Assembly (NCBI RefSeq): GCF_002075285.3
Contig: NZ_CP021983.2
Coordinates: forward strand, 1,800,001-1,832,000
Direction: 5' to 3'
Length of the DNA: 32,000 nucleotides
Source of the DNA: Halomicronema hongdechloris C2206
Lineage (GTDB): Bacteria > Cyanobacteriota > Cyanobacteriia > Phormidesmidales > Phormidesmidaceae
Below, one piece after another: positions 18,533-32,000 of this stretch. How positions within the stretch are numbered: the stretch's first letter is position 1; each line of letters begins with the position of its first letter. The notes below the pieces were generated by a model. That model searched no databases, had not been told where the DNA came from, and saw only the letters and a list, made by a program, of their open reading frames with translations. The translations under genes and the position numbers were made by a program.

Positions 18533-18915
18533 ACTACAAGCGGTTTGCCCTGGTCGTAGGAGTCCGGGGAAGCGACATTCCCCCGGCGAGCACCCTGAGC
18601 TGCACAATAAGTGTGGCCTTATCGTGATCCACCGCCACTGAGCAATACACCCTACACGGGATTTCGGGGCGGTAAGCAGGATGTGGGAGCGTGGTTTCCG
18701 CTCCACTCGTCCACTCGCCTACCCTTCCATTGATCATACTCATAACGAATATGACTTGGCAAGATCAGGGCATTCCGAAAGGGGTCTAAACTCGCTACAA
18801 TGCGGCTATCCGAGTCGATGACTGCAGACCATGGTGATCTCAGCGGAAACAGGCCTGAGATCAGGCGCCATTGCCAGGCCTCTGGGGCTGGCGAGGTCGT
18901 TCCCGATGGTCCCGG

Positions 18916-20610
18916 ATGGTGCCGTTGGTGGCGGGCCTGGTGGTGGGCATGATAGCTCCTCTAAAGGCTGAGCCCTTGAATCCGGAACTGCAGGTGGGGG
19001 TGGTGCAGCGATTTGGCGAGGATGACGATGTCACCCTTCGGTTGGAATCCTTTGCTGGAGCTCCTCTGACGGTATCCTTTCAGACGGGGGAGGAGCCTCA
19101 GCAGATCACCACCCCCCAAGTATTGCTAGAGGTGCAACCACGGCCCTTACCCCAGCGTGAATTGCAGGAGCGGGTGGTGCTCAGCACCCATCGCAGCTTC
19201 GAGAGTGCCGAAGACAGTGCTCAGGCGTGGCAGCAACGGGGTATTGCCACTGAAATTGCCCAACCCGATACTTGGCAGGTGTGGGCCCAGCGAGAGACGT
19301 ATCACACGCCACTGTTACGGCGATTGCTGCTGCAGAACTTGCAGAGCCAGGGATTTACGGAGGTGTTTCTAGATAGCCAGGTGCTGGGACAGGAGCCCCA
19401 GGCGGTGTTTATCGCCAATGGCTATCGCTATCATCGCTCGCGTCTAGAGGTGACGGCGGCCAACCAACGCATTCGGGTCGTGCGGCTCTTGGGCGGAGAT
19501 CCCCAGCGGACGCGGCTCTATGGCGGTAAGCTGCGGCTGCAACCCAATGCCTATGGCACCTATACCCTGGTGAATCAGGTGCCGATTGAGACTTACTTGC
19601 GCGGGGTGGTGCCCCATGAGATTGGCTTGGGGGCTCCTGCGGCTACCATTGCCGCTCAAGCAATTCTGGCTCGCACCTATGCCCTGCGCAATCTGCGTCG
19701 CTTTACCATCGATGACTATCAGCTGTGTGCCGATACCCATTGCCAGGTCTATTGGGGCTTAGGAGGAGCGGCACCTGTCACCGATAAGGCCATCGCCGCC
19801 ACTAAAGGCATGGTGCTGACCTACCAGGGAGAATTGGTGGATGCCCTCTATTCCTCGACTTCAGGAGGTGTCACGGCTCCCTTTAGCCATGTCTGGAATG
19901 GCCCCGATCGCCCTTACTTGAAGGCGGTGGTGGATTCGGTGCAGGGCGTCTGGGATTTGGAGCAAACGCCCCTGAATACCGAAGCGGCAGTGCGGCGGTT
20001 TCTGGACCTCGAGACTGGGTTTAATGAAGCGCGCTGGGATACCTTTCGCTGGCAACGCCAGAGTGACTTGGCTGAGATTACCCAGGATGTCAGGGCCTAT
20101 GTGCGATCGCAACAACATCCCCTAGCCGACTTCACTGAAATCACCAGCCTACAGGTGAGCCAGCGAGCTGCCTCAGGGCGGGTACAGACCCTAGTGATGC
20201 AGACGGATCTGGGCGAAATCACCTTAGTCAAAGATGAAATCATCCGGGTCCTGTCGGCACCGCGGAGCTTGCTGTTTTATCTGGACCCGATCTACGAAGA
20301 GACAACAGCGGCGGCAGAGGCCCCTAGTCAAGCAGCAGAGGCCAGCCCCTCCTCCCCCCTACAGGGCTACCGATTTGTTGGCGGGGGCTTCGGCCACGGT
20401 GTGGGCATGAGCCAAACCGGGGCCTATCGCCTTGGCGCTCTGGGCTGGTCCAGCGAACAAATTCTGCAGTTCTACTATCCCGGCACCACCCTAGAACCAA
20501 TCCATGACGATCTCGTCTTCTGGCGCCCATCAACCGATGCCGACCAGGGAGATCAGGTGGAATCAGACCCTGATGCAGCGGCCAAAAGCATGGCCTCCCC
20601 GTCTCCATAA
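18916..20610 (+). CDS. SpoIID/LytB domain protein (amidase-enhancer family), secreted
   Basis: ORF 18871..20610 (TTG). ATG 18916 gives the signal-like MVPLVAGLVVGMIAPLKA. SpoIID motifs are YLRGVVPHEIG, AQAILARTYAL, CADTHCQVY, ALYSSTSGG and GHGVGMSQTGA. Confidence 0.85.
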   Translation: MVPLVAGLVVGMIAPLKAEPLNPELQVGVVQRFGEDDDVTLRLESFAGAPLTVSFQTGEEPQQITTPQVLLEVQPRPLPQRELQERVVLSTHRSFESAEDSAQAWQQRGIATEIAQPDTWQVWAQRETYHTPLLRRLLLQNLQSQGFTEVFLDSQVLGQEPQAVFIANGYRYHRSRLEVTAANQRIRVVRLLGGDPQRTRLYGGKLRLQPNAYGTYTLVNQVPIETYLRGVVPHEIGLGAPAATIAAQAILARTYALRNLRRFTIDDYQLCADTHCQVYWGLGGAAPVTDKAIAATKGMVLTYQGELVDALYSSTSGGVTAPFSHVWNGPDRPYLKAVVDSVQGVWDLEQTPLNTEAAVRRFLDLETGFNEARWDTFRWQRQSDLAEITQDVRAYVRSQQHPLADFTEITSLQVSQRAASGRVQTLVMQTDLGEITLVKDEIIRVLSAPRSLLFYLDPIYEETTAAAEAPSQAAEASPSSPLQGYRFVGGGFGHGVGMSQTGAYRLGALGWSSEQILQFYYPGTTLEPIHDDLVFWRPSTDADQGDQVESDPDAAAKSMASPSP

Positions 20611-21588: not shown

Positions 21589-22599
21589 GTGTCGAGCCCA
21601 CTGAATGACACACTCCTGAATCAGCCCCTCAAGGTAGGTCTGGTTGGTACCGGCTATGCTGCTCAGCTACGAGCAGAAGCGCTACGGGCAGATGTGCGAT
21701 CGCATCCTTTTTTAGTCGCGGGTCATCGTCCCGAGAAAACCCTGGAATTCAGTCGCAGCCATGGGCTTACCGTGGCCGACTCTTGGCAAGCCGTAGTGCA
21801 CCATCCGGATGTGGATCTAGTCTGTGTGGCCCACCTGAATCGAGATCATGCCCCAGTAGTCGCCGCCGCCTTGCAAGCCCACAAGCATGTCATCGTAGAA
21901 TACCCCCTGGCCTTTTCCCCCCAGCAGGGCCAGCAACTGCTGGCCCTAGCCCGCGCCCAGCAGCGCCTGTTGCACGTGGAGCATATCGAGTTACTAGGGG
22001 GCTTACATCAAGCCATGCAGCAGCATCTGCCCGCCATTGGGGCCCCCTCCTACGTGCGCTATAGCACCCTCAAGCCCCAGCGTCCGGCGCCGACCAAGTG
22101 GACCTATCGCCCCGCCGAATTCGGCTTTCCCCTAGTGGGGGCCCTGTCGCGTATCCATCGCCTCACCCATCTATTTGGTCCCATCACGGCAGTGACCTGC
22201 CAACTTCAGTACGACGGCGTCATCAGCCGTACTACCCCCGAGGCCTTCACCTCCTGTCTCTGCATTGGTCAATTTCAGTTTCAGAGCGGACTGTTGGCGG
22301 AAGTCAGCTATGGCAAGGGAGAGCTGATCTGGCAGGTAACCCGCCGCATGGAAATCTATGGCCAGACCGGTGCCCTGGTGTTCGAAGCCGATCACGGCAC
22401 ATTGATACGCCCAGAGGACACCCAACCCATAGTAGTGGGGTCCCGACGGGGGTTATTTAAGCGAGACACACAGATGGTCTTAGACCACCTCAGCAGTGGC
22501 ACCCCCCTCTATGTGACGCCGCAACAGAGCTTACTCTCTCTGGCAGTGGCCGACGCCGCTCGTCGTTCGGCAGAAACCGGCGAGATGGTACGGCTGTGA
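21589..22599 (+). CDS. bvdR: Gfo/Idh/MocA-fold oxidoreductase, probable biliverdin reductase (BVR-A/BvdR-like)
   Basis: GTG start. Rossmann motif VGLVGTGYAA. KHVIVEYPLAFS...RLLHVEHIELLGG...FGFPLVGALSRIHRLTHLFG parallels the mammalian BVR-A pattern KHVLVEYPM...RVLHEEHVELL...[20 protein letters not shown] and my memory of Synechocystis BvdR. Confidence 0.6.
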   Translation: MSSPLNDTLLNQPLKVGLVGTGYAAQLRAEALRADVRSHPFLVAGHRPEKTLEFSRSHGLTVADSWQAVVHHPDVDLVCVAHLNRDHAPVVAAALQAHKHVIVEYPLAFSPQQGQQLLALARAQQRLLHVEHIELLGGLHQAMQQHLPAIGAPSYVRYSTLKPQRPAPTKWTYRPAEFGFPLVGALSRIHRLTHLFGPITAVTCQLQYDGVISRTTPEAFTSCLCIGQFQFQSGLLAEVSYGKGELIWQVTRRMEIYGQTGALVFEADHGTLIRPEDTQPIVVGSRRGLFKRDTQMVLDHLSSGTPLYVTPQQSLLSLAVADAARRSAETGEMVRL

Positions 22600-22655: not shown

Positions 22656-23174
22656 CTAAAGCGGTGGCTGCCCGATGTAATTGCCGGGCGGAGTGTATTG
22701 GCACACCAAGACATCCCAGCCCTGGCCACTGGCTAGGCCGCAACCCACCTCAGTGGTCTGGCGCCAGATGATTTGGGTGTAGTGGCCCACATCCCGCCAG
22801 TTACCCGTCGTCGCTACCGCCGGAAACACCCCATCGGAGACGAAGTACTGCTTTTCGGCCCCCCAGCTGTCTACCATATCGCTGAGCTCGTAGGCGCCGG
22901 CGGTACCCTTCCAGATGTTTTCCCCATAGCCACCGGCAGCACTATGGGCAAAGCTATTGGTGGCGGCTAGGTGCTCGGCCCACGCTTGGGCCGACTCGGC
23001 CAGGGGCGGAGACCACGCCAGGGGCGGCACGCCCACGTCCTCTCGGTAGCGGTTGTGGGCCTCCAGCAGCACCGTCGCCTCTGAGTCGGCTAGGGCGTTG
23101 CCTGGGCCTGCGATCAGGGCCAGGGCCATGGCTGCCACCATGCCGTAGTCAATCGCCTTGAGTGATACCCCCAT
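22656..23174 (-). CDS. secreted CAP/SCP/PR-1 domain protein
   Basis: Signal-like MVAAMALALIAGPGNALA. CAP motifs are HNRYREDVGVPPLAWS, GENIW and GHYTQIIWRQTTEVGCG. Confidence 0.85.
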   Translation of the reverse strand: MGVSLKAIDYGMVAAMALALIAGPGNALADSEATVLLEAHNRYREDVGVPPLAWSPPLAESAQAWAEHLAATNSFAHSAAGGYGENIWKGTAGAYELSDMVDSWGAEKQYFVSDGVFPAVATTGNWRDVGHYTQIIWRQTTEVGCGLASGQGWDVLVCQYTPPGNYIGQPPL

Positions 23175-23305: not shown

Positions 23306-24409
23306 TCAGTGAGTCCCTGGCGGTGCCGACTTAGGCGCCGCCAGGGTGGGCTCTGGCATAGCCGCCTGGCCGAAGGTGCCATTGAGGCCAGCGGCAATCT
23401 GGGCAAACACCTGGCTCACAGAGGCATCGGGCAGTTGTAGCGGCAGCGGGACCCCTGCATCGGCTAAGGCACAAATGCGCGGGTCAAGAGGCACCTGGCC
23501 CCACAGAGGCACCTGCAGATCCCGGGCAATCTGGGCGCCACCACCACTGCCAAAAATCGGAGTCGGGTTGCCGCAGTGGCCACAGAGCAGATAACTCATG
23601 TTTTCCACCAGCCCTAGCACTGGCACCCCCACCTGCCGAAACATGGCGACACTGCGCCGCACATCGGCGACGGCTACTTGCTGGGGCGTCGTCACCATGA
23701 TCACGCCGCAAATGGGGCTCTCCTGCATGATGGTAATCTGGGCATCGCCGGTACCAGGGGGCAAATCAATGAGCAGGTAGTCGAGGTCACCCCACTCGAC
23801 CTCTTGAAGAAACTGGGTCAGGATTTTATGCATCACTGGCCCTCGCCAGGCCAGGGGATGATCCTGCTCCGCCAGCAACCCCACCGACATCAGCTTGATG
23901 CCATGGGCGTCTAGGGGTAGGAACCGCTGGCCGCTGTCGGTCTCTACCACCTGGACACTGGATTGGCCCAGCCCCAACATGTGCGGCACATTGGGACCAT
24001 AAATATCGGCATCCAGTAGGCCCACCTTGGCGCCACTGCGAGTCAGGGCGGCGGCCAGGTTGACGGCGGTGGTTGACTTGCCGACTCCCCCTTTGCCACT
24101 GGAGACAGCCAGGGTAGTGCGGACGCCGGGAATGGTGCATAGCTGAGCGTAGGCCTTCTTGCACCAGGGCAGGGCAGTGAGGGTCTGTTGCACCTGCTGT
24201 TGAAGATGGCGCTGGTGGGTGCCCACATACAGGCGTAGATACACGTAGTCATCTACTATCTGCAGGTTACGCACCATGCCCAGGTTGACTAGGTTGTTGG
24301 GCAGGGTGGGGGCTTGAATGTCTTGCAGCCGGGCGATGACTTCGGCTTTACGAGTGTCGGCTTGGGGGTCAGCGGCGGCCCGATGAAAGGGAGATGAATG
24401 ACTAGGCAT
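23306..24409 (-). CDS. mrp: Mrp/ApbC/NBP35-family Fe-S cluster carrier ATPase with N-terminal DUF59/MIP18 domain
   Basis: ATG 24409 (MPSHSS...). DUF59-like LVNLGMVRNLQIVDDYVYLRL. Deviant Walker A SGKGGVGKSTTAVNLA. DLPPGTGD. Cluster-bridging C-x-x-C (CGHCG). Confidence 0.9.
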   Translation of the reverse strand: MPSHSSPFHRAAADPQADTRKAEVIARLQDIQAPTLPNNLVNLGMVRNLQIVDDYVYLRLYVGTHQRHLQQQVQQTLTALPWCKKAYAQLCTIPGVRTTLAVSSGKGGVGKSTTAVNLAAALTRSGAKVGLLDADIYGPNVPHMLGLGQSSVQVVETDSGQRFLPLDAHGIKLMSVGLLAEQDHPLAWRGPVMHKILTQFLQEVEWGDLDYLLIDLPPGTGDAQITIMQESPICGVIMVTTPQQVAVADVRRSVAMFRQVGVPVLGLVENMSYLLCGHCGNPTPIFGSGGGAQIARDLQVPLWGQVPLDPRICALADAGVPLPLQLPDASVSQVFAQIAAGLNGTFGQAAMPEPTLAAPKSAPPGTH

Positions 24410-24419
24410 TGGGAGTTTC

Positions 24420-25379
24420 TCAGCAAGACGCCTGAATCTTTGCGATCGCACGTTCCGAATAGATGCGCACGTCCATGTCGGGGTCATCTAAGGTTTGCTG
24501 CAGGGCCGGCAGCACACTGGCATCGCCGATATTACCCAGGGCCGTGGCAGCATCGCGACGCACATCGGAATATTCGTCGGAGAGGGCCTTGATTAAGGCC
24601 GGAATCGCCTGAGCATTTGGGATTTGCTGCAGGGCTCGAGCGGTGAACTTGCGCACCTGCCACTCCGCATCGGCCATGGCGGCCATGAGGGCCTCCGTAG
24701 CCGCCGCATCGGCTTGTAATTCTAGAGACTTGGCGGCATTACGACGCACCTGCCAGTCGGCATCCGTCCTCAGCAGCTCACACAGCAGCGGTATTACCCC
24801 CGCATCGCTGAGATGGCCCAGGGTGAGGGCCGTGGCCCGTCGCACACTCTCCTCTGCATCCTTGGCCAAGGCTAGGACTGGTTCACACCGCACCACCTGA
24901 TTCAGGTAGCGCAGGGTGGTCACCGCCGCCTCCCGCAGCGCTGGATTATCAGACTCGAAGAAGGGCAAAATGAACGGCAAGGCTTGGGCATCGTGGATCT
25001 TGCGCAGCAGAATCAACACCCCCAGTTGGGCGTGGACATCGTCTTGCTGCAAGACATCCAACAGCGTCATCAAATCCTGGGTGGACACCAGTTCCTTCAG
25101 AGCCGCCAGCGCCTCGTCTCGCACCTGCTGATGAGGGGCATTGAGGCACTCGATTAGGGGCGGAATCGCCACCGGATTCGCAAGCTCCCACAGGGTGGTG
25201 ACGGCAATGTGCTGCACCCTAGGATGGTCGTCCTGGAGAGCCGCAATCAAGGGCTCGATGGCATCTTCATCCCCCAGGTGTTGCAGGGTTTTGACCGCCA
25301 CCAAACGCTCTTCTACATCGTGCGATCGCAACATCTCAACCCATTGGGCGAGGTCAGGGTCCATATCGGTGGTGTGCAT
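24420..25379 (-). CDS. HEAT-repeat (PBS-lyase HEAT-like) protein
   Basis: 319 aa built of ~30-aa repeats of the type D..VR..A..AL..(I/L)G...A(I/L)P.L...L.D. The stop is 10 nt before the mrp start. Confidence 0.85.
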   Translation of the reverse strand: MHTTDMDPDLAQWVEMLRSHDVEERLVAVKTLQHLGDEDAIEPLIAALQDDHPRVQHIAVTTLWELANPVAIPPLIECLNAPHQQVRDEALAALKELVSTQDLMTLLDVLQQDDVHAQLGVLILLRKIHDAQALPFILPFFESDNPALREAAVTTLRYLNQVVRCEPVLALAKDAEESVRRATALTLGHLSDAGVIPLLCELLRTDADWQVRRNAAKSLELQADAAATEALMAAMADAEWQVRKFTARALQQIPNAQAIPALIKALSDEYSDVRRDAATALGNIGDASVLPALQQTLDDPDMDVRIYSERAIAKIQASC

Positions 25380-25502: not shown

Positions 25503-25730
25503 TCATCGCAGCAGGAACGGAATCTGCACCGTAATGGCATTGGTGGGGCATTCTTTCTCGCAGGGCAGGCAGAACCAGCATTCGTCATATTTCATGTAGG
25601 CCTTGCCGGTGTCTGGATTTTTCACCAGCACATCGAGGGGACAAACCTCAATGCAGGCCACGCACTTCTCCAAGCATTTCGACTCATCGACGATGACGGG
25701 TACATCCACCCGTTGAGTAGTTAAGGCCAT
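25503..25730 (-). CDS. 2x[4Fe-4S] ferredoxin, AprB N-terminal-domain-like (75 aa)
   Basis: The two Cys clusters are CLEKCVACIEVCP and CWFCLPCEKECP. The layout VDESKC...CIEVCPLDVL...(insert)...YDECWFCLPCEKECPTNAIT parallels the ferredoxin domain of APS reductase beta subunits. The C-terminal AprB tail is absent. Confidence 0.8.
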   Translation of the reverse strand: MALTTQRVDVPVIVDESKCLEKCVACIEVCPLDVLVKNPDTGKAYMKYDECWFCLPCEKECPTNAITVQIPFLLR

Positions 25731-25805: not shown

Positions 25806-27512
25806 CTACTGACGCACAGCCACGTCGTAGACCTCCTGGTCTAGGTCGACATTGACGACGTAGGGTTCAACCGGGCGCTTAAACAGCTCCATGGCCCCGA
25901 CCTCGCTCTTTTTCAGGTTGACGTGACAGAACCACTCTTGGTTATTCTTCTCGGGATAGTCGAGCCGGTAGTGATAAAGCCCCCAGCGGCTTTCCTGGCG
26001 AAATAGAGAGGCACGGGCCGCCATTTCGGCACAGTCGCGGATGAAGTGCACCTCCATGCAGCGCATCAACTCGTGGGGATCGCGGGCTCCCATCAGGTTT
26101 AGAGTGTCCTCATAGGCCCTGAACTTCTCCAGGCCGATGTCCATCTTGTAGGGGGATTTGGGCGGTTGCAAATAGTCGTTGACTAGCCGCCGCAGTTTAT
26201 ACTCCATTTGGGTATGGGGCACCCCTTCCGGCTGCTCTAGGGGCCGATAGATGCGGGCTTTTTCGGCGGCTAAAAACGCCTGGTCAGGCTCGACGTGGTC
26301 TAGGGCTTGCCCATACTCCATGGCATTTTCCCCGGCAATGCGGCCATAGACGAAAGCCCCAATCATGTAGTTGTGAGGCACACTGGCCATGTCCCCGGCG
26401 GCATAGAGACCGGGCACAGTGGTTTCGGCCTTGTCATTCACCCACACCCCCGAGGCGCTGTGGCCGCTGCAGAGGCCGATTTCTGAGATGTTCATCTCGA
26501 CCCCGTGGTAGCGGTAGTCTTCCCCGCGGCCGCCGTGGAAGCGTCCCCGACTGGGCCGCTCATTGGACCACAGAATCGACTCGATCTCCGAGATGGTGTC
26601 ATCATCGAGGTGGTACATCTTCAGGTGCACCGGGCCTTTGCCAGAGTTGAGCTCCTTCCACACCTCCAGCATCATCTGGCCGCTCCAGTAATCGCAGCTA
26701 ATGAAGCGGTGCCCTTCGGCATTAGCCGTGTAGGCCCCGAAGGGACTGGCCACATAGGCACAGGCAGGGCCGTTATAGTCTTTGATCAAGGGATTGATCT
26801 GAAAGCATTCGATGTTGGTAAGTTCGGCCCCGGCATGGTAGGCCATGGAGTAGCCGTCACCGGCGTTGGTGGGATTTTCATAGGTGCCGTAGAGATAGCC
26901 AGATGCAGGCAATCCCAGCCGCCCACAGGCCCCAGTGCAGAGCACCACGGCCTTGGCCTGAATCACCACGAAGTCACCGCTGCGGACATCGAAGCCCACG
27001 GCCCCAGTGACTCGGCCGTCCTGCACCATCACCCGGGTGGCCATGACCCGATTGGTCACCTTGACCTGGTGGCGCTTTACTTGGCGGGCCAGAATTTTTT
27101 TCAGGTCTTTGCCTTCCGGCATGGGTAAGACATACTTGCCGACCCGATGCACCTGCTTCAGGTCGTAGTTGCCTTCGTGGTCTTTCTGGAACTTGACGCC
27201 CCAGCTCTCCAACTCTTGGATCACCTCGAAGCCCAGGCGACCAGTTTGGTATACCGCCTTCTGATTTAAGATGCCATCGTTGGCGATGGTGATCTCGCGC
27301 ACGTACTGCTCTGGAGTGGAGTTGCCAGGGATGACGGCGGTGTTGACCCCATCCATCCCCATTGCGATCGCACCGCTGCGGCGAATATTGGCCTTCTCCA
27401 ACACCAGCACCTCGCTCTCGGGACTGGCCTGTTTGGCCTTAATTGCCGCCATGGTTCCAGCGGTACCGCCACCGACTACCAGAAAATCGGTCTTCAAATA
27501 CTGAGTATTCAC
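25806..27512 (-). CDS. FAD flavoprotein of the FrdA/SdhA superfamily, AprA (adenylylsulfate reductase alpha)-like, 568 aa
   Basis: GTG start with a GAGGGAG SD. FAD motif DFLVVGGGTAGTMAA. Blocks that line up by eye with Desulfovibrio AprA are EKANIRRSGAIAMGMDGVN, ELESWGVKF, RVTGAVGFDVRSGDFVVIQAKAVVLCTGACG, NAGDGYSMAYHAGAELTNIE, LCSGHSASGVWVN, TTVPGLYAAGD and HELMRCMEVH...FRQESRWGLYHYRLDYPE...WFCHVNLK. Confidence 0.8.
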   Translation of the reverse strand: MNTQYLKTDFLVVGGGTAGTMAAIKAKQASPESEVLVLEKANIRRSGAIAMGMDGVNTAVIPGNSTPEQYVREITIANDGILNQKAVYQTGRLGFEVIQELESWGVKFQKDHEGNYDLKQVHRVGKYVLPMPEGKDLKKILARQVKRHQVKVTNRVMATRVMVQDGRVTGAVGFDVRSGDFVVIQAKAVVLCTGACGRLGLPASGYLYGTYENPTNAGDGYSMAYHAGAELTNIECFQINPLIKDYNGPACAYVASPFGAYTANAEGHRFISCDYWSGQMMLEVWKELNSGKGPVHLKMYHLDDDTISEIESILWSNERPSRGRFHGGRGEDYRYHGVEMNISEIGLCSGHSASGVWVNDKAETTVPGLYAAGDMASVPHNYMIGAFVYGRIAGENAMEYGQALDHVEPDQAFLAAEKARIYRPLEQPEGVPHTQMEYKLRRLVNDYLQPPKSPYKMDIGLEKFRAYEDTLNLMGARDPHELMRCMEVHFIRDCAEMAARASLFRQESRWGLYHYRLDYPEKNNQEWFCHVNLKKSEVGAMELFKRPVEPYVVNVDLDQEVYDVAVRQ

Positions 27513-27686
27513 TTAAACACTCCCTCAGCGTTTACGGCAGTGAACAACACCAAGTCCAGGTTGAGATCGGGGGTTCAGACCACTAGATCTGGGCTTGGAT
27601 GAGATTTCAATCAACGGGGAAATATGCTTTGCCTGCATCCAGCCCTGGCAGCCCTGGAGAAACAATTCCCATCAAGGTTCTCCTTA

Positions 27687-27726
27687 TTGACTAGAGCTGA
27701 ACATTGACTAGCGCTAAACTGACTAG
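27687..27726. promoter_or_regulatory. three direct repeats of (T)TGACTAG spaced 17 and 15 nt
   Basis: TTGACTAG at 27687-27694 and 27704-27711, and CTGACTAG at 27719-27726, with further TGAC half-sites at about 27731 and 27747. They lie in the divergent aprA-like/LysR intergenic region. Confidence 0.35.
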
Positions 27727-27861
27727 ATTCTGACATCGGAAAAGCGACTGACAAAAACCGCTGTTTCTAATGCCTTTTACAGGATTCTAGAAAATACTCA
27801 ATGAGCCAGCAATGGCGTTTGTAACAGCTGCTACGGTTTCAAGATTCAAGTCTTTTATAGA

Positions 27862-27886
27862 CTCATAAAAAGTTTGAATATATGAG
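27862..27886. promoter_or_regulatory. inverted repeat CTCATA-N13-TATGAG, candidate LysR-type operator
   Basis: Perfect 6-bp arms in AT-rich DNA, ~92 nt upstream of the LysR GTG start. LysR regulators typically bind AT-rich dyads upstream of their own divergently transcribed gene. Confidence 0.35.
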
Positions 27887-27977
27887 CGACCCTGCATCGG
27901 CAAATGATTAATGAATAATTCCTGTAAATCTCACGGCAAATCTTAAGTTGAATGGCCCAATTGATTAGGAGGCTATC

Positions 27978-29987
27978 GTGGAAATTTACCAGCTTAAGGT
28001 GTTTTTAGAAGTGGCACGGTGCCTTAGCTTCACGGAAGCCGCCACTGCTCTAAATTTAACCCAGCCCGCCGTTAGCGCCAAAATCAAGTCTTTAGAAGCT
28101 GATCTGGATACTCCCCTGTTCAATCGCCTAGGGCGGCGAATTGAACTGACTCAGGTGGGGCAGTATCTGTTAGAAGAAGCTCCTTATCTAGTTGACTTAG
28201 AGGCTCAACTCATCGCTGAAATTGAAGATATAAAGCAGGGGAAGTTCAGCACGCTAAAAATTGGCTGCATGGCTGAACTCAATAATCACTGGCTACCCTC
28301 AGTGCTGTTTGAGTATCGTCGGCAATGGCCAAGTGTGCAGACCCGTTGCTGCCAGTTTGAATCCGCAGAAAAGTTATATCGTGCCATCAAAAATGGCGAT
28401 GCCGACCTTGGCTTTTCAGATCTGAGCTTTTCCGAGTTTGACGATCTATCGGAGACGGTGATCGATACCATTCACTACTCCCTGATTGCCTCCAGGAATC
28501 ATCGGCTGGCTCAGCAGCCATGGTTGAGCTTGAAGGAACTGCTGCATCAACCCTGGGTGCTATTACCTGACGGCAGCCCCAGTCGCATCATCTTTGAGAA
28601 ACGCCTGCGGGAGCTGGGCCTAAGCCTGGCTGACTTCACCCAGGTCGAAATTGTCGATGCCCCTGGCTTGGTGCGGACCTATGTGCTGCAGGGGCATTAT
28701 CTTAGCTTTATTGCCGACGTTGACTTGCAAATTGAGCAACAAGCCGGCTTAATTCAGGCCATCGCCCTAGAAGAATTTGCCTTGGGAACACCGCTGTTTC
28801 TGCTGATGTCGAAACGCCTAGCCCGGGCCTTAGCCCAACAGCCTATTCCCTTTCGAGGTCGCCAGGCCCTAGAGCCAATTCGCCAGTTCATCACCCTGCT
28901 GCATCAGCGGCAGTCGCCCCCAGCTCCCCAGCGGCAGACTGCGGCGACAGACTCTACTCCACCGCCTCCGGCCCGGTTTCAAGCCCCCCACTTCATCAGG
29001 CGGCCCCGGTCGAGCCAGCCTGGTGACACCCTCACGCTCACGATTGGCACTCAAAATCGCACTATCCAAACGGTAACGGCGGGGCTAATTATTCAACGGC
29101 TGGGGCTGCTAGAGCACTTCTTACCTCAGCAGGGTCGCTACAGGGGCACCCAGTATCAGATTCGCTGGTGGGACTACACCTCAGGGGCCCCCATTGTGGC
29201 TGGGTTGGCGTCGAAGCAAATTGATATCGGGGTCTTGGGGGACTACCCGCTCCTATTGAGTGCCATGCCCCCCCAGGGGACTGATGCCAACACCTGTCTG
29301 ATTAGCTTCGTGGCTAGTAATCCCGACGGTACCGGCAATGACATCATTGTGCCCCATCGCTCCCACCTTAGCCGTATCGAAGACCTCGAGGGCCGGGTGA
29401 TTGCGGTGCCGTTTAGTTCTGCTGCCCACAGCATGGTGATGCGATCGCTACACCATAAAAATTTGTTGGAGCAGGTTAGGCTCACCTCCATTGACAACCT
29501 CAATCCGCAACGGCTAATTAGCGATTTGGGGCAAGTAGATGGCTATGCCTACTTTGCACCGTTCCATGAAATCGCCAAGCACAAGGGACAGTGTCGTCGA
29601 CTGCTGGAAGACAACTTAGATGGCCTGCCGACCTTCCACGGCATCGTGGTGCAGCAAGAGTTGGCCAGTCAATATCCTGAGGTGGTGGTGGCCTACTTGC
29701 AGGCGTTGCTGGCGGCCCAGTATTGGTATGCCACCACACCAATGGCCGCAACCCTGGTCAGCCGCTGGGTCAATTTAGATGCGGCCATCGTGTCGAAGAC
29801 CTTACTCACCGGCGCCAGTGACTATACCCAGGGCGTGTTTTTCCCAGAGACTCATATCCGTGCTGACTGGGTCAGTGAACATGTCAACCAGCTCCAGCAC
29901 ATTGCCGGCCATGAGTATCTAGGCCAGATGAATCTGAATCACTGGATGCAGCCGGAATTTTTGCAGCGGGCGGTGGCGTCTCTTTAG
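27978..29987 (+). CDS. LysR-family transcriptional regulator fused to a C-terminal SsuA/TauA/NMT1-like solute-binding domain (669 aa)
   Basis: GTG start with a TAGGAGG SD. The wHTH is MEIYQLKVFLEVARCLSFTEAATALNLTQPAVSAKIKSLE. A full LysR effector domain spans residues ~90-295, followed by a Pro/Gln-rich linker (SPPAPQRQTAATDSTPPPPARF). The ~320-aa C-terminal domain has type-2 SBP motifs of the NitT/TauT family: YQIRWWDYTSGAPIVAGLASKQIDIGVLGDYPLL, IEDLEGRVIAVPFSSAAHSMVMRSL and VDGYAYFAPF. There is no signal peptide or TM segment. Confidence 0.85.
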   Translation: MEIYQLKVFLEVARCLSFTEAATALNLTQPAVSAKIKSLEADLDTPLFNRLGRRIELTQVGQYLLEEAPYLVDLEAQLIAEIEDIKQGKFSTLKIGCMAELNNHWLPSVLFEYRRQWPSVQTRCCQFESAEKLYRAIKNGDADLGFSDLSFSEFDDLSETVIDTIHYSLIASRNHRLAQQPWLSLKELLHQPWVLLPDGSPSRIIFEKRLRELGLSLADFTQVEIVDAPGLVRTYVLQGHYLSFIADVDLQIEQQAGLIQAIALEEFALGTPLFLLMSKRLARALAQQPIPFRGRQALEPIRQFITLLHQRQSPPAPQRQTAATDSTPPPPARFQAPHFIRRPRSSQPGDTLTLTIGTQNRTIQTVTAGLIIQRLGLLEHFLPQQGRYRGTQYQIRWWDYTSGAPIVAGLASKQIDIGVLGDYPLLLSAMPPQGTDANTCLISFVASNPDGTGNDIIVPHRSHLSRIEDLEGRVIAVPFSSAAHSMVMRSLHHKNLLEQVRLTSIDNLNPQRLISDLGQVDGYAYFAPFHEIAKHKGQCRRLLEDNLDGLPTFHGIVVQQELASQYPEVVVAYLQALLAAQYWYATTPMAATLVSRWVNLDAAIVSKTLLTGASDYTQGVFFPETHIRADWVSEHVNQLQHIAGHEYLGQMNLNHWMQPEFLQRAVASL

Positions 29988-30799
29988 GCGGCCTCCATGC
30001 TTTTGAGGGTCTCTTCCCGAATGCAGTCAAATACCTGCCGATGCAACGTCATAAAATCAGGGGAGAGGGTGTCATCAAAATGGCGGGGGCGACGCAGATG
30101 AATCGGGATCTCGGCTTTAATATGCCCTGGATGTACTCCCATGATGAAGATGCGATCGCACAGGAAAATTGCCTCCTCAATGTCGTGGGTGACAAAAATC
30201 ACCGTAGTTTTCAAATCACTCCAGATATCGAGCAGTAGCTCCTGCATCATGTGGCGGGTTTGGGCATCGAGGGCGGCAAAGGGCTCATCCATCAACAACA
30301 CCGATGGCGAATTTACCAAAGCCCGGACAATGCTAGCTCGTTGCTGCATTCCCCCCGACAGCTGGGCCGGATAGCTATGGCGATAGCGATAGAGCCCCAC
30401 CCGATTCAGGTAGTCATTGACCAACTCAGTGCGCTCAGCCTTAGCCATGCCACGGATCTTGAGGCCCAACTCAATATTCTGAAACGTCGTTTTCCAGGGC
30501 AACAACGAATACTGCTGGAAGACAAACCCCCGGTCGGCCCCCGGTCGACAAACCGGCTGTTGGTCTACCAAAATGTAGCCCTCCGAGGGCTTGAGAAAAC
30601 CGGCAATGCCATTGAGTAGGGTAGACTTGCCACAGCCAGACGGCCCTAACAAGCAGACAAATTCCCCCGGTTGAATACTGAGGTTAATAGCATCGAGCAC
30701 ATGATTGATGTGTCCCTTCCGTCTGAAGGTGACTGACAGCCCCTCCACTTGCACAGACCCCTTAACACTCTGCGTTTGCTGCAACTGTTGCATCAACAT
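29984..30799 (-). CDS. ABC transporter ATP-binding protein, NitT/TauT (nitrate/sulfonate/bicarbonate) family
   Basis: Walker A GPSGCGKST, Q-loop, signature LSGGMQQR, Walker B LLMDEPFAALD and H-loop THD. The size (271 aa) and sequence style match SsuB/TauB-type ATPases. Confidence 0.9.
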   Translation of the reverse strand: MLMQQLQQTQSVKGSVQVEGLSVTFRRKGHINHVLDAINLSIQPGEFVCLLGPSGCGKSTLLNGIAGFLKPSEGYILVDQQPVCRPGADRGFVFQQYSLLPWKTTFQNIELGLKIRGMAKAERTELVNDYLNRVGLYRYRHSYPAQLSGGMQQRASIVRALVNSPSVLLMDEPFAALDAQTRHMMQELLLDIWSDLKTTVIFVTHDIEEAIFLCDRIFIMGVHPGHIKAEIPIHLRRPRHFDDTLSPDFMTLHRQVFDCIREETLKSMEAA

Positions 30800-30893: not shown

Positions 30894-31754
30894 TCAGGCA
30901 TCTTGCTTTTTAATCACCCGCCAAGGCATGAGGGCAGCCATGGTGCGATTGACAGCCCAAGAGCTGATTGCCCCCATCAAGCCAATCAGCAACATGCCCA
31001 TGACAATCGGTGGATAGTTCGAGGTGACGTAAGATTCCCAGGTGATATAGCCAATGCCGTAACGCCCCGCCAAGATTTCAGCGGTGACTAAACAAAACCA
31101 GGCATTGCCCATGCCGATGGTAAGACCACTGGCGATACTGGGTAGGGAGCCAGGCAAAACAATATCTTTGAAAATATGCCAGGATCTTGCCCCTAAACAC
31201 TGCCCCACCCGAATCAACACCGTGTCACTGAGAATGCTCTCCACCCCACGAATGGTGCTAATCAACACCGGGAAAAACGCCCCCACAAAGGTGATATAAA
31301 CCATGCCACTCTCTGCATTCGGAAACATCAAAATTGCCAGGGGAATCCAGGCCACTGCTGGAATCGGCCGCAGCAGCTCCAACGGAGGCATCAGCAAATC
31401 TTCAACCTTCTCGAACCAGCCCGCCAGCACCCCTAGAATGATGCCCAGGCATGAGGCCACGGCATAGCCAATCATGACCCGCTGAATACTCGAGCGAAAG
31501 TGAACCCACGGGTCAGTGGTGAAAAAGGTCAGCGTGGCTTTCAACACCTGCAGCGGAGACGGTATCAGCTGAAAATTTACGAAAAAGCTGAAGCCGATGT
31601 TGCATAGAAACTGCCAGCCGCCAAAGAAAATCACTAAGGCCAGCAGGCGCCGCGCTGAACGATTGGCAAAAAACAACGCCCTCAAAGCCATGGCCGTTTG
31701 ATAACGCCAGCCCCGCCGCGACTGCCGTGTCGCCTTCGAAGTCATAACTGCCAT
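30894..31754 (-). CDS. ABC transporter permease, NitT/TauT family (SsuC/TauC-like)
   Basis: ATG 31754 is preceded by GGAGAGGAAG. It has six TM segments and an EAA-type loop region (IRGVESILSDTVLIRVGQCLGARSWHIFKDIVLPGSLP). Confidence 0.9.
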   Translation of the reverse strand: MAVMTSKATRQSRRGWRYQTAMALRALFFANRSARRLLALVIFFGGWQFLCNIGFSFFVNFQLIPSPLQVLKATLTFFTTDPWVHFRSSIQRVMIGYAVASCLGIILGVLAGWFEKVEDLLMPPLELLRPIPAVAWIPLAILMFPNAESGMVYITFVGAFFPVLISTIRGVESILSDTVLIRVGQCLGARSWHIFKDIVLPGSLPSIASGLTIGMGNAWFCLVTAEILAGRYGIGYITWESYVTSNYPPIVMGMLLIGLMGAISSWAVNRTMAALMPWRVIKKQDA

Positions 31755-31801
31755 AGGGTCTTCCTCTCCAGCAGAGCACATCCGTTCATCCCAGGGGCAA
31801 C

Positions 31802-31833
31802 GACCTAACGCCGTCCTTAGATAGCGTTAGGTC
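31802..31833. promoter_or_regulatory. perfect 10-bp inverted repeat GACCTAACGC-N12-GCGTTAGGTC upstream of the permease gene
   Basis: Arms at 31802-31811 and 31824-31833, 48-79 nt upstream of the permease ATG. No U-tract follows on the minus strand. Candidate operator, or intercistronic/5-prime-UTR hairpin. Confidence 0.4.
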
Positions 31834-32000
31834 CACCAAGCCGGATGACCATTAGCAGCCACCTTACGCAGTTAGTGAAGTGCCCGTCTGTATTCCATAG
31901 GGCAGTAGTGATGCACATTCTCCGTAGATGGTCGGCTACAGCATTTCCTGGCTGGGTGCTGTAATCAGACTCAATGGCTGACTCAAGTTAGCGCCGACCT

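Follow-up and report, generated by a model that had tools for sequence, protein, structure and literature searches.

The stretch of DNA considered here, 32,000 nucleotides of Halomicronema hongdechloris C2206 (contig NZ_CP021983.2, positions 1,800,001 to 1,832,000; the whole stretch is referred to as the window, and positions are counted from its first letter), contains a gene that joins a LysR-type transcriptional regulator (LTTR) to a solute-binding protein (SBP) domain in one open reading frame (ORF). The gene is read divergently from genes for an AprA-like flavoprotein, a ferredoxin, a HEAT-repeat protein and an iron-sulfur (Fe-S) cluster carrier, and convergently with the ATPase and permease genes of an ATP-binding cassette (ABC) importer (Table 1). 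The fusion gene is real, conserved in cyanobacteria and under selection, and its SBP-derived part, here called the C-domain, probably serves as an intracellular sensor.

Table 1. Features of the fusion gene and its surroundings in window coordinates (aa, amino acids of the fusion protein). The last column gives the place of a partner gene relative to the fusion gene and the number of related loci with the partner among those whose flank extends far enough.
Feature	Position	Strand	Details	Related loci
LysR-SBP fusion gene	27978..29987	+	669 aa; identical to ASC70779.1 / WP_080811356.1, Halomicronema hongdechloris
LysR winged helix-turn-helix, DNA-binding, aa 5-62	27990..28163	+	Pfam HTH_1 (PF00126), 78 bits, cut-off 26.6
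LysR effector-binding (type-2 periplasmic binding protein) domain, aa 88-281	28239..28820	+	Pfam LysR_substrate (PF03466), 88 bits
Extra helix aa 292-312 and flexible P/Q/R-rich linker aa 313-350	28851..29027	+	predicted local distance difference test (pLDDT) score <50 at 315-326
Cytoplasmic TauA/SsuA-type solute-binding domain, aa 351-669	29028..29984	+	Pfam, NCBIfam, Foldseek, pocket alignment
Conserved intergenic block, candidate operator, ~60 bp	27818..27879	.	fixed orientation	in 68/73 divergent intergenic regions
Block element TTTGTA	27818-27823
Block element TACGGTTT	27832-27839
Block element, dyad ATTCAAGTCTTTTAT-AGACTC-ATAAAAAGTTTGAAT	27844-27879
Block element, core TTTTATAGACTCATAAAA	27853-27870
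AprA-like FAD flavoprotein	25806..27512	-	PRK08275 family; first gene of divergent operon	upstream, divergent, 65/65
Ferredoxin, 75 aa, 2x[4Fe-4S]	25503..25730	-	AprB-like beta subunit	upstream, divergent, 61/61
HEAT-repeat protein	24420..25379	-	319 aa	upstream, divergent, 59/59
Mrp/ApbC Fe-S cluster carrier ATPase	23306..24487	-	NUBPL-type
ABC importer ATPase	29984..30799	-	NitT/TauT family; convergent, overlaps regulator stop by 4 nt	downstream, convergent, 57/70
ABC importer permease	30894..31781	-	NitT/TauT family	downstream, convergent, 53/68
Periplasmic SBP				downstream, convergent, 43/57
SpoIID-domain protein	18871-20610	+	unrelated neighbour
GFO/IDH/MocA oxidoreductase	21589-22599	+	unrelated neighbour
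CAP-family secreted protein	22656-23174	-	unrelated neighbour

Architecture and distribution of the fusion gene

The ORF starts with GTG, 5-6 nt downstream of an AGGAGG motif, and the remaining two forward frames across the gene are closed, their longest open stretches being 67 and 96 codons. Its four parts, a winged helix-turn-helix (HTH), an effector-binding domain, a linker and an SBP domain, follow each other as the sequence-only reading of this DNA had placed them, and Pfam, AlphaFold2 and Foldseek agree on the arrangement. All Pfam matches exceed their gathering cut-offs, including NMT1_2 (aa 401-592, 31.5 bits, cut-off 24.7) and NMT1 (aa 454-590, 24.6 bits, cut-off 20.5) in the C-domain. 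The NCBIfam models of TauA and SsuA match aa 390-610 at ~1e-21, with scores far under the equivalog cut-offs (76 versus 304 bits for TauA, TIGR01729; 75 versus 163.5 bits for SsuA, TIGR01728). An AlphaFold2 monomer model, built on 34 family members, reached a pLDDT of 86.2 and a predicted template modelling score (pTM) of 0.82; it shows a linker helix at aa 59-86, after the HTH, and disorder limited to residues 315-326. The 74 residues from aa 282 to 355 comprise 13 P, 10 R and 10 Q. With Foldseek, the N-terminal half retrieved full-length LTTRs (CcmR 5y2v, CbnR and BenM, E ~1e-19 to 1e-21) and the C-terminal half retrieved SsuA (3ksj/3ksx, target TM score 0.80-0.81) and TauA (6ssy), so that domain annotation and structure prediction both give the C-terminal region an SBP fold. 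By sequence, the nearest solved relatives of the effector domain are the cyanobacterial regulators NtcB (8h3v) and CcmR (5y2v).

The Kyte-Doolittle hydrophobicity over 19 residues has its maximum, 1.56, within the LysR domain, and the N-terminus is occupied by the HTH; hence the protein has neither a signal peptide nor a transmembrane helix. For the C-domain, which is internal and follows the LysR domains and a hydrophilic linker, no export signal or lipobox was found. This bears out the earlier claim that the SBP-fold domain is cytoplasmic. The GC content rises along positions 27750-29250, from ~43-48% around the 5' end of the LysR half (27750-28500) through ~52% by 28750 to ~55-60% in the linker and SBP half, a gradient that could reflect separate histories of the two halves.

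Full-length homologues form more than 120 clusters with 53-83% identity, and all those with a source name are cyanobacterial. A scan with the C-domain only, in one genome per GTDB species, returned 164 loci, the best 80 of which are all cyanobacterial. The LysR part lies upstream in the same frame at 78 of the 80 loci, while the other two end at contig edges, and the median fusion ORF among related loci is 681 aa long. When the C-domain alone was searched exhaustively with HMMER, a set of 1.8 billion proteins yielded only 192 representatives at E≤1e-10, with fusions of 614-714 aa ranked first and stand-alone SBPs of ~470-490 aa after them. The most divergent fusions in this search retain 27-32% C-domain identity to the window protein; for picocyanobacterial fusions the values are ~28% for the C-domain and 24-27% for the whole protein. 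One such divergent fusion, P0138, belongs to the marine picocyanobacterium Cyanobium sp. NAT70 and occurs on many Tara Oceans and other marine contigs. In the databases these proteins carry the generic labels 'LysR family transcriptional regulator' or 'NitT/TauT substrate-binding protein'. The sequence-only reading knew of no described LysR-SBP fusion, and no description of this architecture was found in the literature; the architecture is nevertheless not rare, as it is present in at least 164 species-level cyanobacterial genomes.

It could be argued that an assembly or indel error in the linker has merged the genes of a ~300-aa LysR regulator and a ~330-aa SBP. The linker is indeed of low complexity and GC-rich, a setting in which indel errors could arise, and one unrelated joined ORF, the metagenomic P0143, is known. 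However, the single frame is kept in 78 of 78 complete homologous loci from different species and assemblies, which establishes the fusion as genuine, as the sequence-only reading had assumed. Between aa 300 and 360 the linker contains no in-frame start codon and no ribosome-binding site, the other frames are closed, and the C-domain lacks the lipoprotein signal carried by all stand-alone paralogues. An artefact can be dismissed for practical purposes, the conservation across species being decisive.

The joined ORF P0143 (779 aa, HEAT and SBP parts) was considered as a second type of cytoplasmic fusion and rejected: a lipobox, LLVVFVLGGC, lies between its parts, and its SBP is of the periplasmic type with a NosL domain. 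It represents either a read-through of neighbouring genes or a membrane-anchored fusion, and ties a HEAT protein to an SBP in another lineage.

Conserved neighbourhood and origin of the C-domain

The flanking Apr-like and transporter genes, proposed earlier as targets of the regulator, proved to be its conserved partners, with the divergent flavoprotein gene at every locus that could be scored and the downstream ATPase gene at most of them (Table 1). A Mrp/ApbC-type carrier follows the HEAT gene in the window and in related loci, and in some genomes the cluster also includes TauE and/or YeiH-type exporters. The whole arrangement is kept in Cyanobium and Dactylococcopsis salina. In a Nostocales-type locus (L089, JAESGT010000071.1, 4554-12369) the genes for SBP, permease, ATPase, flavoprotein, ferredoxin, HEAT protein and Mrp form one co-directional operon. 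Since this locus joins the two parts in a single operon and the arrangement persists across lineages, we regard importer and enzyme as one functional unit. The L089 contig also carries ParA/ParB genes, and in Fischerella sp. NIES-4106 a flavoprotein of the same sequence is annotated on a plasmid. No paper on the flavoprotein/HEAT cluster in cyanobacteria was found in the literature.

Within the window, the importer ATPase adjacent to the regulator has 271 aa and no extra domain. The cognate lipoprotein SBP gene of H. hongdechloris would lie beyond the window end; positions 31782-32000 contain stop codons in all three reverse frames. The Mrp/ApbC ORF, listed with 393 aa, exceeds its homologues (336-366 aa) by 30-50 aa and runs 68 nt into the 3' end of the HEAT gene; because of this excess length, the true start is probably internal, downstream of 24487. 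Other genes accompany the module elsewhere. In Cyanobium sp. NAT70, urease genes flank it (L086/L087, 1-4253 and 15990-18334), with an amidase and an M20 peptidase in the vicinity, as well as a second SBP of the ordinary NMT1_2 kind (342 aa) together with its permease; in Dactylococcopsis (L088) a formamidase adjoins it. These neighbours are related to nitrogen metabolism.

The flavoprotein is 84-95% identical across cyanobacterial orders and thus conserved far beyond the regulator. The protein, designated 'Apr-like' earlier, is AprA-like without being a true AprA: its NF005331 score is 322 bits (cut-off 557) and its TIGR02061 score 198 (cut-off 642), while PRK08275, the family to which it belongs, reaches 1009 bits (cut-off 587). 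Its nearest solved relative is the alpha subunit of the AprA-like reductase for 3'-phosphoadenosine 5'-phosphosulfate (PAPS) from Methanothermococcus thermolithotrophicus (MtPAPSR; 8a8o, 2.4e-72), an enzyme that uses an attack of FAD-N5 on the sulfo group (PMC10322725). The proposed specificity residues K120-R121-S122 of MtPAPSR align to K-Y-V plus a 5-residue insertion in the flavoprotein, and because of this different nucleotide-specificity loop a sulfo-substrate other than PAPS or adenosine 5'-phosphosulfate (APS) is plausible. Flavoprotein-HEAT fusions occur elsewhere (NCBIfam PRK13800). The 'Sao' ABC system, which supplies the top NCBIfam names, was rejected as an identification, as the scores are below the cut-offs and the system belongs to a selenoprotein/organometal context of anaerobes.

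In related genomes a lipoprotein SBP of 482-507 aa precedes the convergent importer genes. This periplasmic SBP of the cluster consists of an NMT1-type core and a C-terminal NosL domain (PF05573, 29 bits, cut-off 24). The NosL-tailed architecture (seen at L001 14262-15710(-), L086 13712-15235(-) and L089 4554-6062(+)) is unusual, and the fused cytoplasmic copy has no NosL domain. The window C-domain shares 37% identity over 265 aa with the lipoprotein SBP of L001 (E=1e-60), and in the exhaustive HMMER search the nearest non-fusion relatives of the C-domain are the 470-490-aa SBPs of the same cluster. In a neighbour-joining tree of SBP domains rooted on E. coli TauA, the fused domains are monophyletic (100/100 bootstrap) and sister to the periplasmic SBPs of the cluster (74/100). 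The simplest history consistent with these relationships would be one duplication of the importer SBP gene, loss of the signal peptide and the NosL tail, and fusion to an LTTR of NtcB/CcmR stock. The LTTR would then have gained its signal-peptide-less copy once, early in cyanobacterial evolution.

Predicted ligand pocket and possible signals

The ligand contacts of the C-domain were predicted from a MAFFT alignment against the taurine contacts of TauA. In TauA, the sulfonate is contacted by Q30, S60-G61, G79 and the backbone of T132, and the amine by E106 and D205 (PMC6906117). The predicted pocket of the C-domain comprises Q359, S402-G403, G421-D422-Y423, N454, A482, F526, F553 and H554. All sulfonate positions are kept (Q30 as Q359, S60-G61 as S402-G403, G79 as G421, the T132 backbone as A482), whereas the amine contacts are replaced (E106 by N454, D205 by H554), with the same replacements in the cognate periplasmic SBPs. 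A near-identical signature, Q, S/T-G, G-D-Y/F, N, A/S, F, F/L, H, is found in nearly all fusions sampled at ≥52% identity and in the cognate SBPs. It is chiefly this shared signature that argues for one and the same non-taurine oxyanion as ligand of both sensor and transporter. The C-domain thus resembles TauA of E. coli and SsuA of Xanthomonas and E. coli (6ssy, 3ksj, 2x26) in its fold (target TM score ≤0.81) and in the oxyanion positions Q, S-G, G and backbone amide; it differs from them by the missing export signal, by N and H in place of E106 and D205, and by scores below the equivalog cut-offs. By these features it is not a transport SBP.

We favour, with a probability of about 60%, the view that the fusion protein is a substrate-sensing LTTR that activates a cyanobacterial module for the uptake and processing of organosulfur compounds, with an SBP-derived sensor domain. 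The sequence-only reading had considered a direct sensing of the transported substrate; this is supported by the paralogy of the C-domain to the cognate SBP and, in the lineage of the window, by the common pocket.

Cytoplasmic SBP homologues with a sensory role are known from other systems. The C-terminal regulatory domain of NrtC and CmpC is a cytoplasmic paralogue (~30% identity) of the NitT/TauT-family SBP of the transporter; in CmpC its apo form binds and locks the nucleotide-binding domains (NBDs), and the ligand frees the partner with a Kd of 0.38 mM (PMC13287603). As in the window protein, an SBP paralogue of the own transporter is fused to the C-terminus of a cytoplasmic protein as an intracellular sensor, and both are cyanobacterial inventions. 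The partner there is an ABC ATPase and the control of transport is post-translational, whereas here the partner is an LTTR and the output is presumably transcription; also, the window C-domain belongs to the TauA/SsuA branch and not to the NrtA branch. NasS, a transport-SBP homologue without a signal peptide, is a cytoplasmic sensor for assimilation genes that lets go of NasT upon ligand binding (PMC5424462). The NasS-NasT systems of Paracoccus, Azotobacter and Pseudomonas are alike in that a cytoplasmic SBP homologue controls the expression of the matching assimilation genes, but NasS is a protein of its own and holds back an ANTAR antiterminator by non-covalent sequestration, while the sensor described here is covalently joined to the LTTR, and its ligand is probably a sulfo-compound and not nitrate. 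Functionally, NasS and the NrtC/CmpC regulatory domains are the closest counterparts of the C-domain, with a different partner and SBP branch, and the behaviour of CmpC and NrtC, where the apo form locks and the ligand releases, suggests the kind of switch to expect.

The same comparison offers another candidate signal. Nitrate is the signal for the regulatory domain of CmpC, although bicarbonate is what the transporter carries (PMC13287603), and the C-domain might likewise respond to a downstream product or an unrelated anion, such as sulfite, sulfate, thiosulfate or nitrate, and exert feedback in place of substrate induction. The sensor pocket of picocyanobacteria, which is unlike that of the cognate SBP, and the urease and amidase genes near their cluster would fit such a role. 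In the window lineage, however, the checked ligand-contact residues match the transport SBP, and we consider feedback improbable.

The C-domain may also be a degenerate SBP that binds no small molecule and serves as a protein-protein module, docking on the importer ATPase or on the HEAT/flavoprotein complex; such docking would couple transcription to the activity of transporter or enzyme. MalK, for instance, sequesters MalT. The apo CmpC regulatory domain acts by binding the NBDs, the pTM of the model suggests a defined packing between the domains of the fusion protein, and the picocyanobacterial pocket has drifted. Against a mere docking module, the ligand-contact positions are among the best conserved of the family and identical to the transport SBP in most lineages, and the SBP core is conserved above the LysR effector domain. 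We consider a docking module devoid of ligand improbable; ligand sensing and protein docking are compatible, and a ligand-dependent docking is possible.

The relative constraint on the domains bears on the number of signals. Over the 34 family members, the HTH is the best conserved part, with a mean pairwise identity of 71%; the SBP core follows with 54% and the effector domain with 41%, and the linker, whose segment varies from 40 to 88 aa across homologues, drops to 20%. Of four picocyanobacterial members checked, Pfam does not detect LysR_substrate in P0138 and P0149 and places it below threshold in P0144, while the HTH and the SBP-like domain are still clear in all three. As the SBP core outlasts the effector domain both in identity and in Pfam detection, the appended domain looks like the more constrained sensory part, and the LysR effector domain may be mainly a scaffold. 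A protein that integrates two signals, with the effector domain binding one metabolite (e.g. sulfur status, as in CysB or Cbl), the SBP domain binding the substrate and both being needed, appears unlikely to us, if somewhat less so than feedback or docking. In the lineage of the window, purifying selection acts on both domains, which are intact and well folded, and the tau and ssu operons of E. coli require general sulfur-status LTTRs; the lower conservation of the effector domain and its loss from Pfam detection in picocyanobacteria speak against such an integrator. Of the two ligand-sensing modules claimed in the sequence-only reading, both folds are present, and the LysR effector domain may or may not sense a ligand.

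Candidate operator and proposed mode of action

The fusion gene and the flavoprotein gene are separated by a divergent intergenic region of 465 bp with an inverted repeat at 27844-27879. By counting the presence of k-mers in 73 homologous intergenic regions, a core TTTTATA(C/G)ACTCATAAAA was found to stand out; a crude palindrome search across the loci returned no motif. Conservation in a fixed register reaches from the core toward the flavoprotein side, first to TACGGTTT and then to TTTGTA. The dyad has the consensus AT-N7-TTyTAT-N6-ATAAAA-N7-AT and its symmetry is restricted to the inner TTyTAT/ATAAAA and the outer AT/AT. The core is single-copy in the window even with 3 mismatches, and related loci totalling 847 kb have it solely upstream of the fusion gene, apart from three weaker occurrences upstream of the gene for the periplasmic SBP. 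A position-weight scan located a related, weaker element ~205 nt upstream of the SBP gene, which exceeds the 99th percentile of shuffles at 8 of 43 loci. The block is consistent with a dyad for protein binding that adjoins an activation site, as would be expected for an LTTR promoter, and we infer that the fusion protein binds it.

An RNA hairpin or riboswitch was rejected as an explanation of the palindrome, since the central arm positions are mostly non-complementary and the symmetric parts are conserved as sequence; no Rfam family was found in 27400-28100 at E≤1. Between the conserved block and the flavoprotein gene lie three copies of TGACTAG(A) (27686-27727), including a 17-bp tandem repeat (ATTGACTAGAGCTGAAC / ATTGACTAGCGCTAAAC). 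These repeats were considered as operator and discarded, as they are absent from 68 of the 73 related intergenic regions. The same intergenic region contains a perfect 9-bp tandem duplication, CAGCCCTGG CAGCCCTGG, at 27640-27657.

If the fusion protein is a substrate-sensing activator, it would sit on the conserved block as an LTTR oligomer. The importer would take up an organosulfur anion, and the tethered C-domain would close on the accumulated sulfo-compound or a close cytoplasmic derivative; closure would be relayed via the tether to the LTTR core, which would activate the enzyme operon and probably also the importer operon. The LysR effector domain would act as an oligomerisation and allosteric scaffold that may or may not bind a second signal, e.g. 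sulfur status. The regulated module would probably free sulfite from the organosulfur anion via FAD-N5 chemistry as in APS/PAPS reductases.

Several observations weigh against this model. The scores of the C-domain stay far from the TauA and SsuA cut-offs of NCBIfam and thus do not point to a named substrate. The importer is not adjacent to the regulator in ~20-25% of the loci, and upstream of the SBP gene the related element is weak. The dyad is not the textbook 13-bp T-N11-A box, as its spacer is even, with 6 nt. The Nostocales-type module is complete without a LysR-SBP gene; the fused regulator is therefore better seen as a lineage-specific controller of the importer/enzyme unit. In picocyanobacteria the pocket of the fused domain has S-A, S, T and Y, as against G, N, A and H retained by their periplasmic SBP, so that the argument for a common ligand holds only for the branch of the window; the specificity of the sensor may have shifted in the picocyanobacterial branch.

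With the canonical LTTRs (NtcB 8h3v, CcmR 5y2v, CbnR, BenM and CysB) the fusion protein shares the N-terminal winged HTH, the linker helix and the two-lobed effector domain, as well as a gene divergent from the presumed target operon; the conserved dyad of the candidate operator lies in between, though with a spacer unlike that of the canonical box. It differs by about twice the usual length of ~300 aa and by a second, transporter-derived domain of the periplasmic binding protein fold (~320 aa) attached through a flexible tether. A review of LTTR fundamentals and exceptions from 2024 gives ~300 aa as the norm and does not mention fused or additional domains. Tentatively, and with less confidence than in the activator role itself, the protein could represent the first described class of LTTR that takes its inducer specificity from a copy of the SBP of the target transporter, with an oxygenase-free organosulfur pathway as regulon in which sulfite is released by AprAB-like FAD-N5 chemistry with the HEAT and Mrp proteins.

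If true, this would be a modular re-specification of an LTTR, in which the SBP of a transporter is borrowed instead of evolving the effector pocket. Because the binding protein is the importer's own, regulator and importer would start with the same ligand specificity, which makes such borrowing attractive for the design of biosensors. Being soluble, both the fused sensor and its periplasmic counterpart lend themselves readily to screens of ligand libraries for the substrate of the module. The finding would extend the cyanobacterial reuse of NitT/TauT SBPs as intracellular sensors, as in NrtC and CmpC, from the control of transport to transcription. The regulator marks a tightly conserved, uncharacterised sulfur-related module of cyanobacteria that is also present on Tara Oceans contigs of picocyanobacteria, and if the proposed function is correct, a pathway of organosulfur acquisition would be widespread in cyanobacteria, including marine picocyanobacteria.

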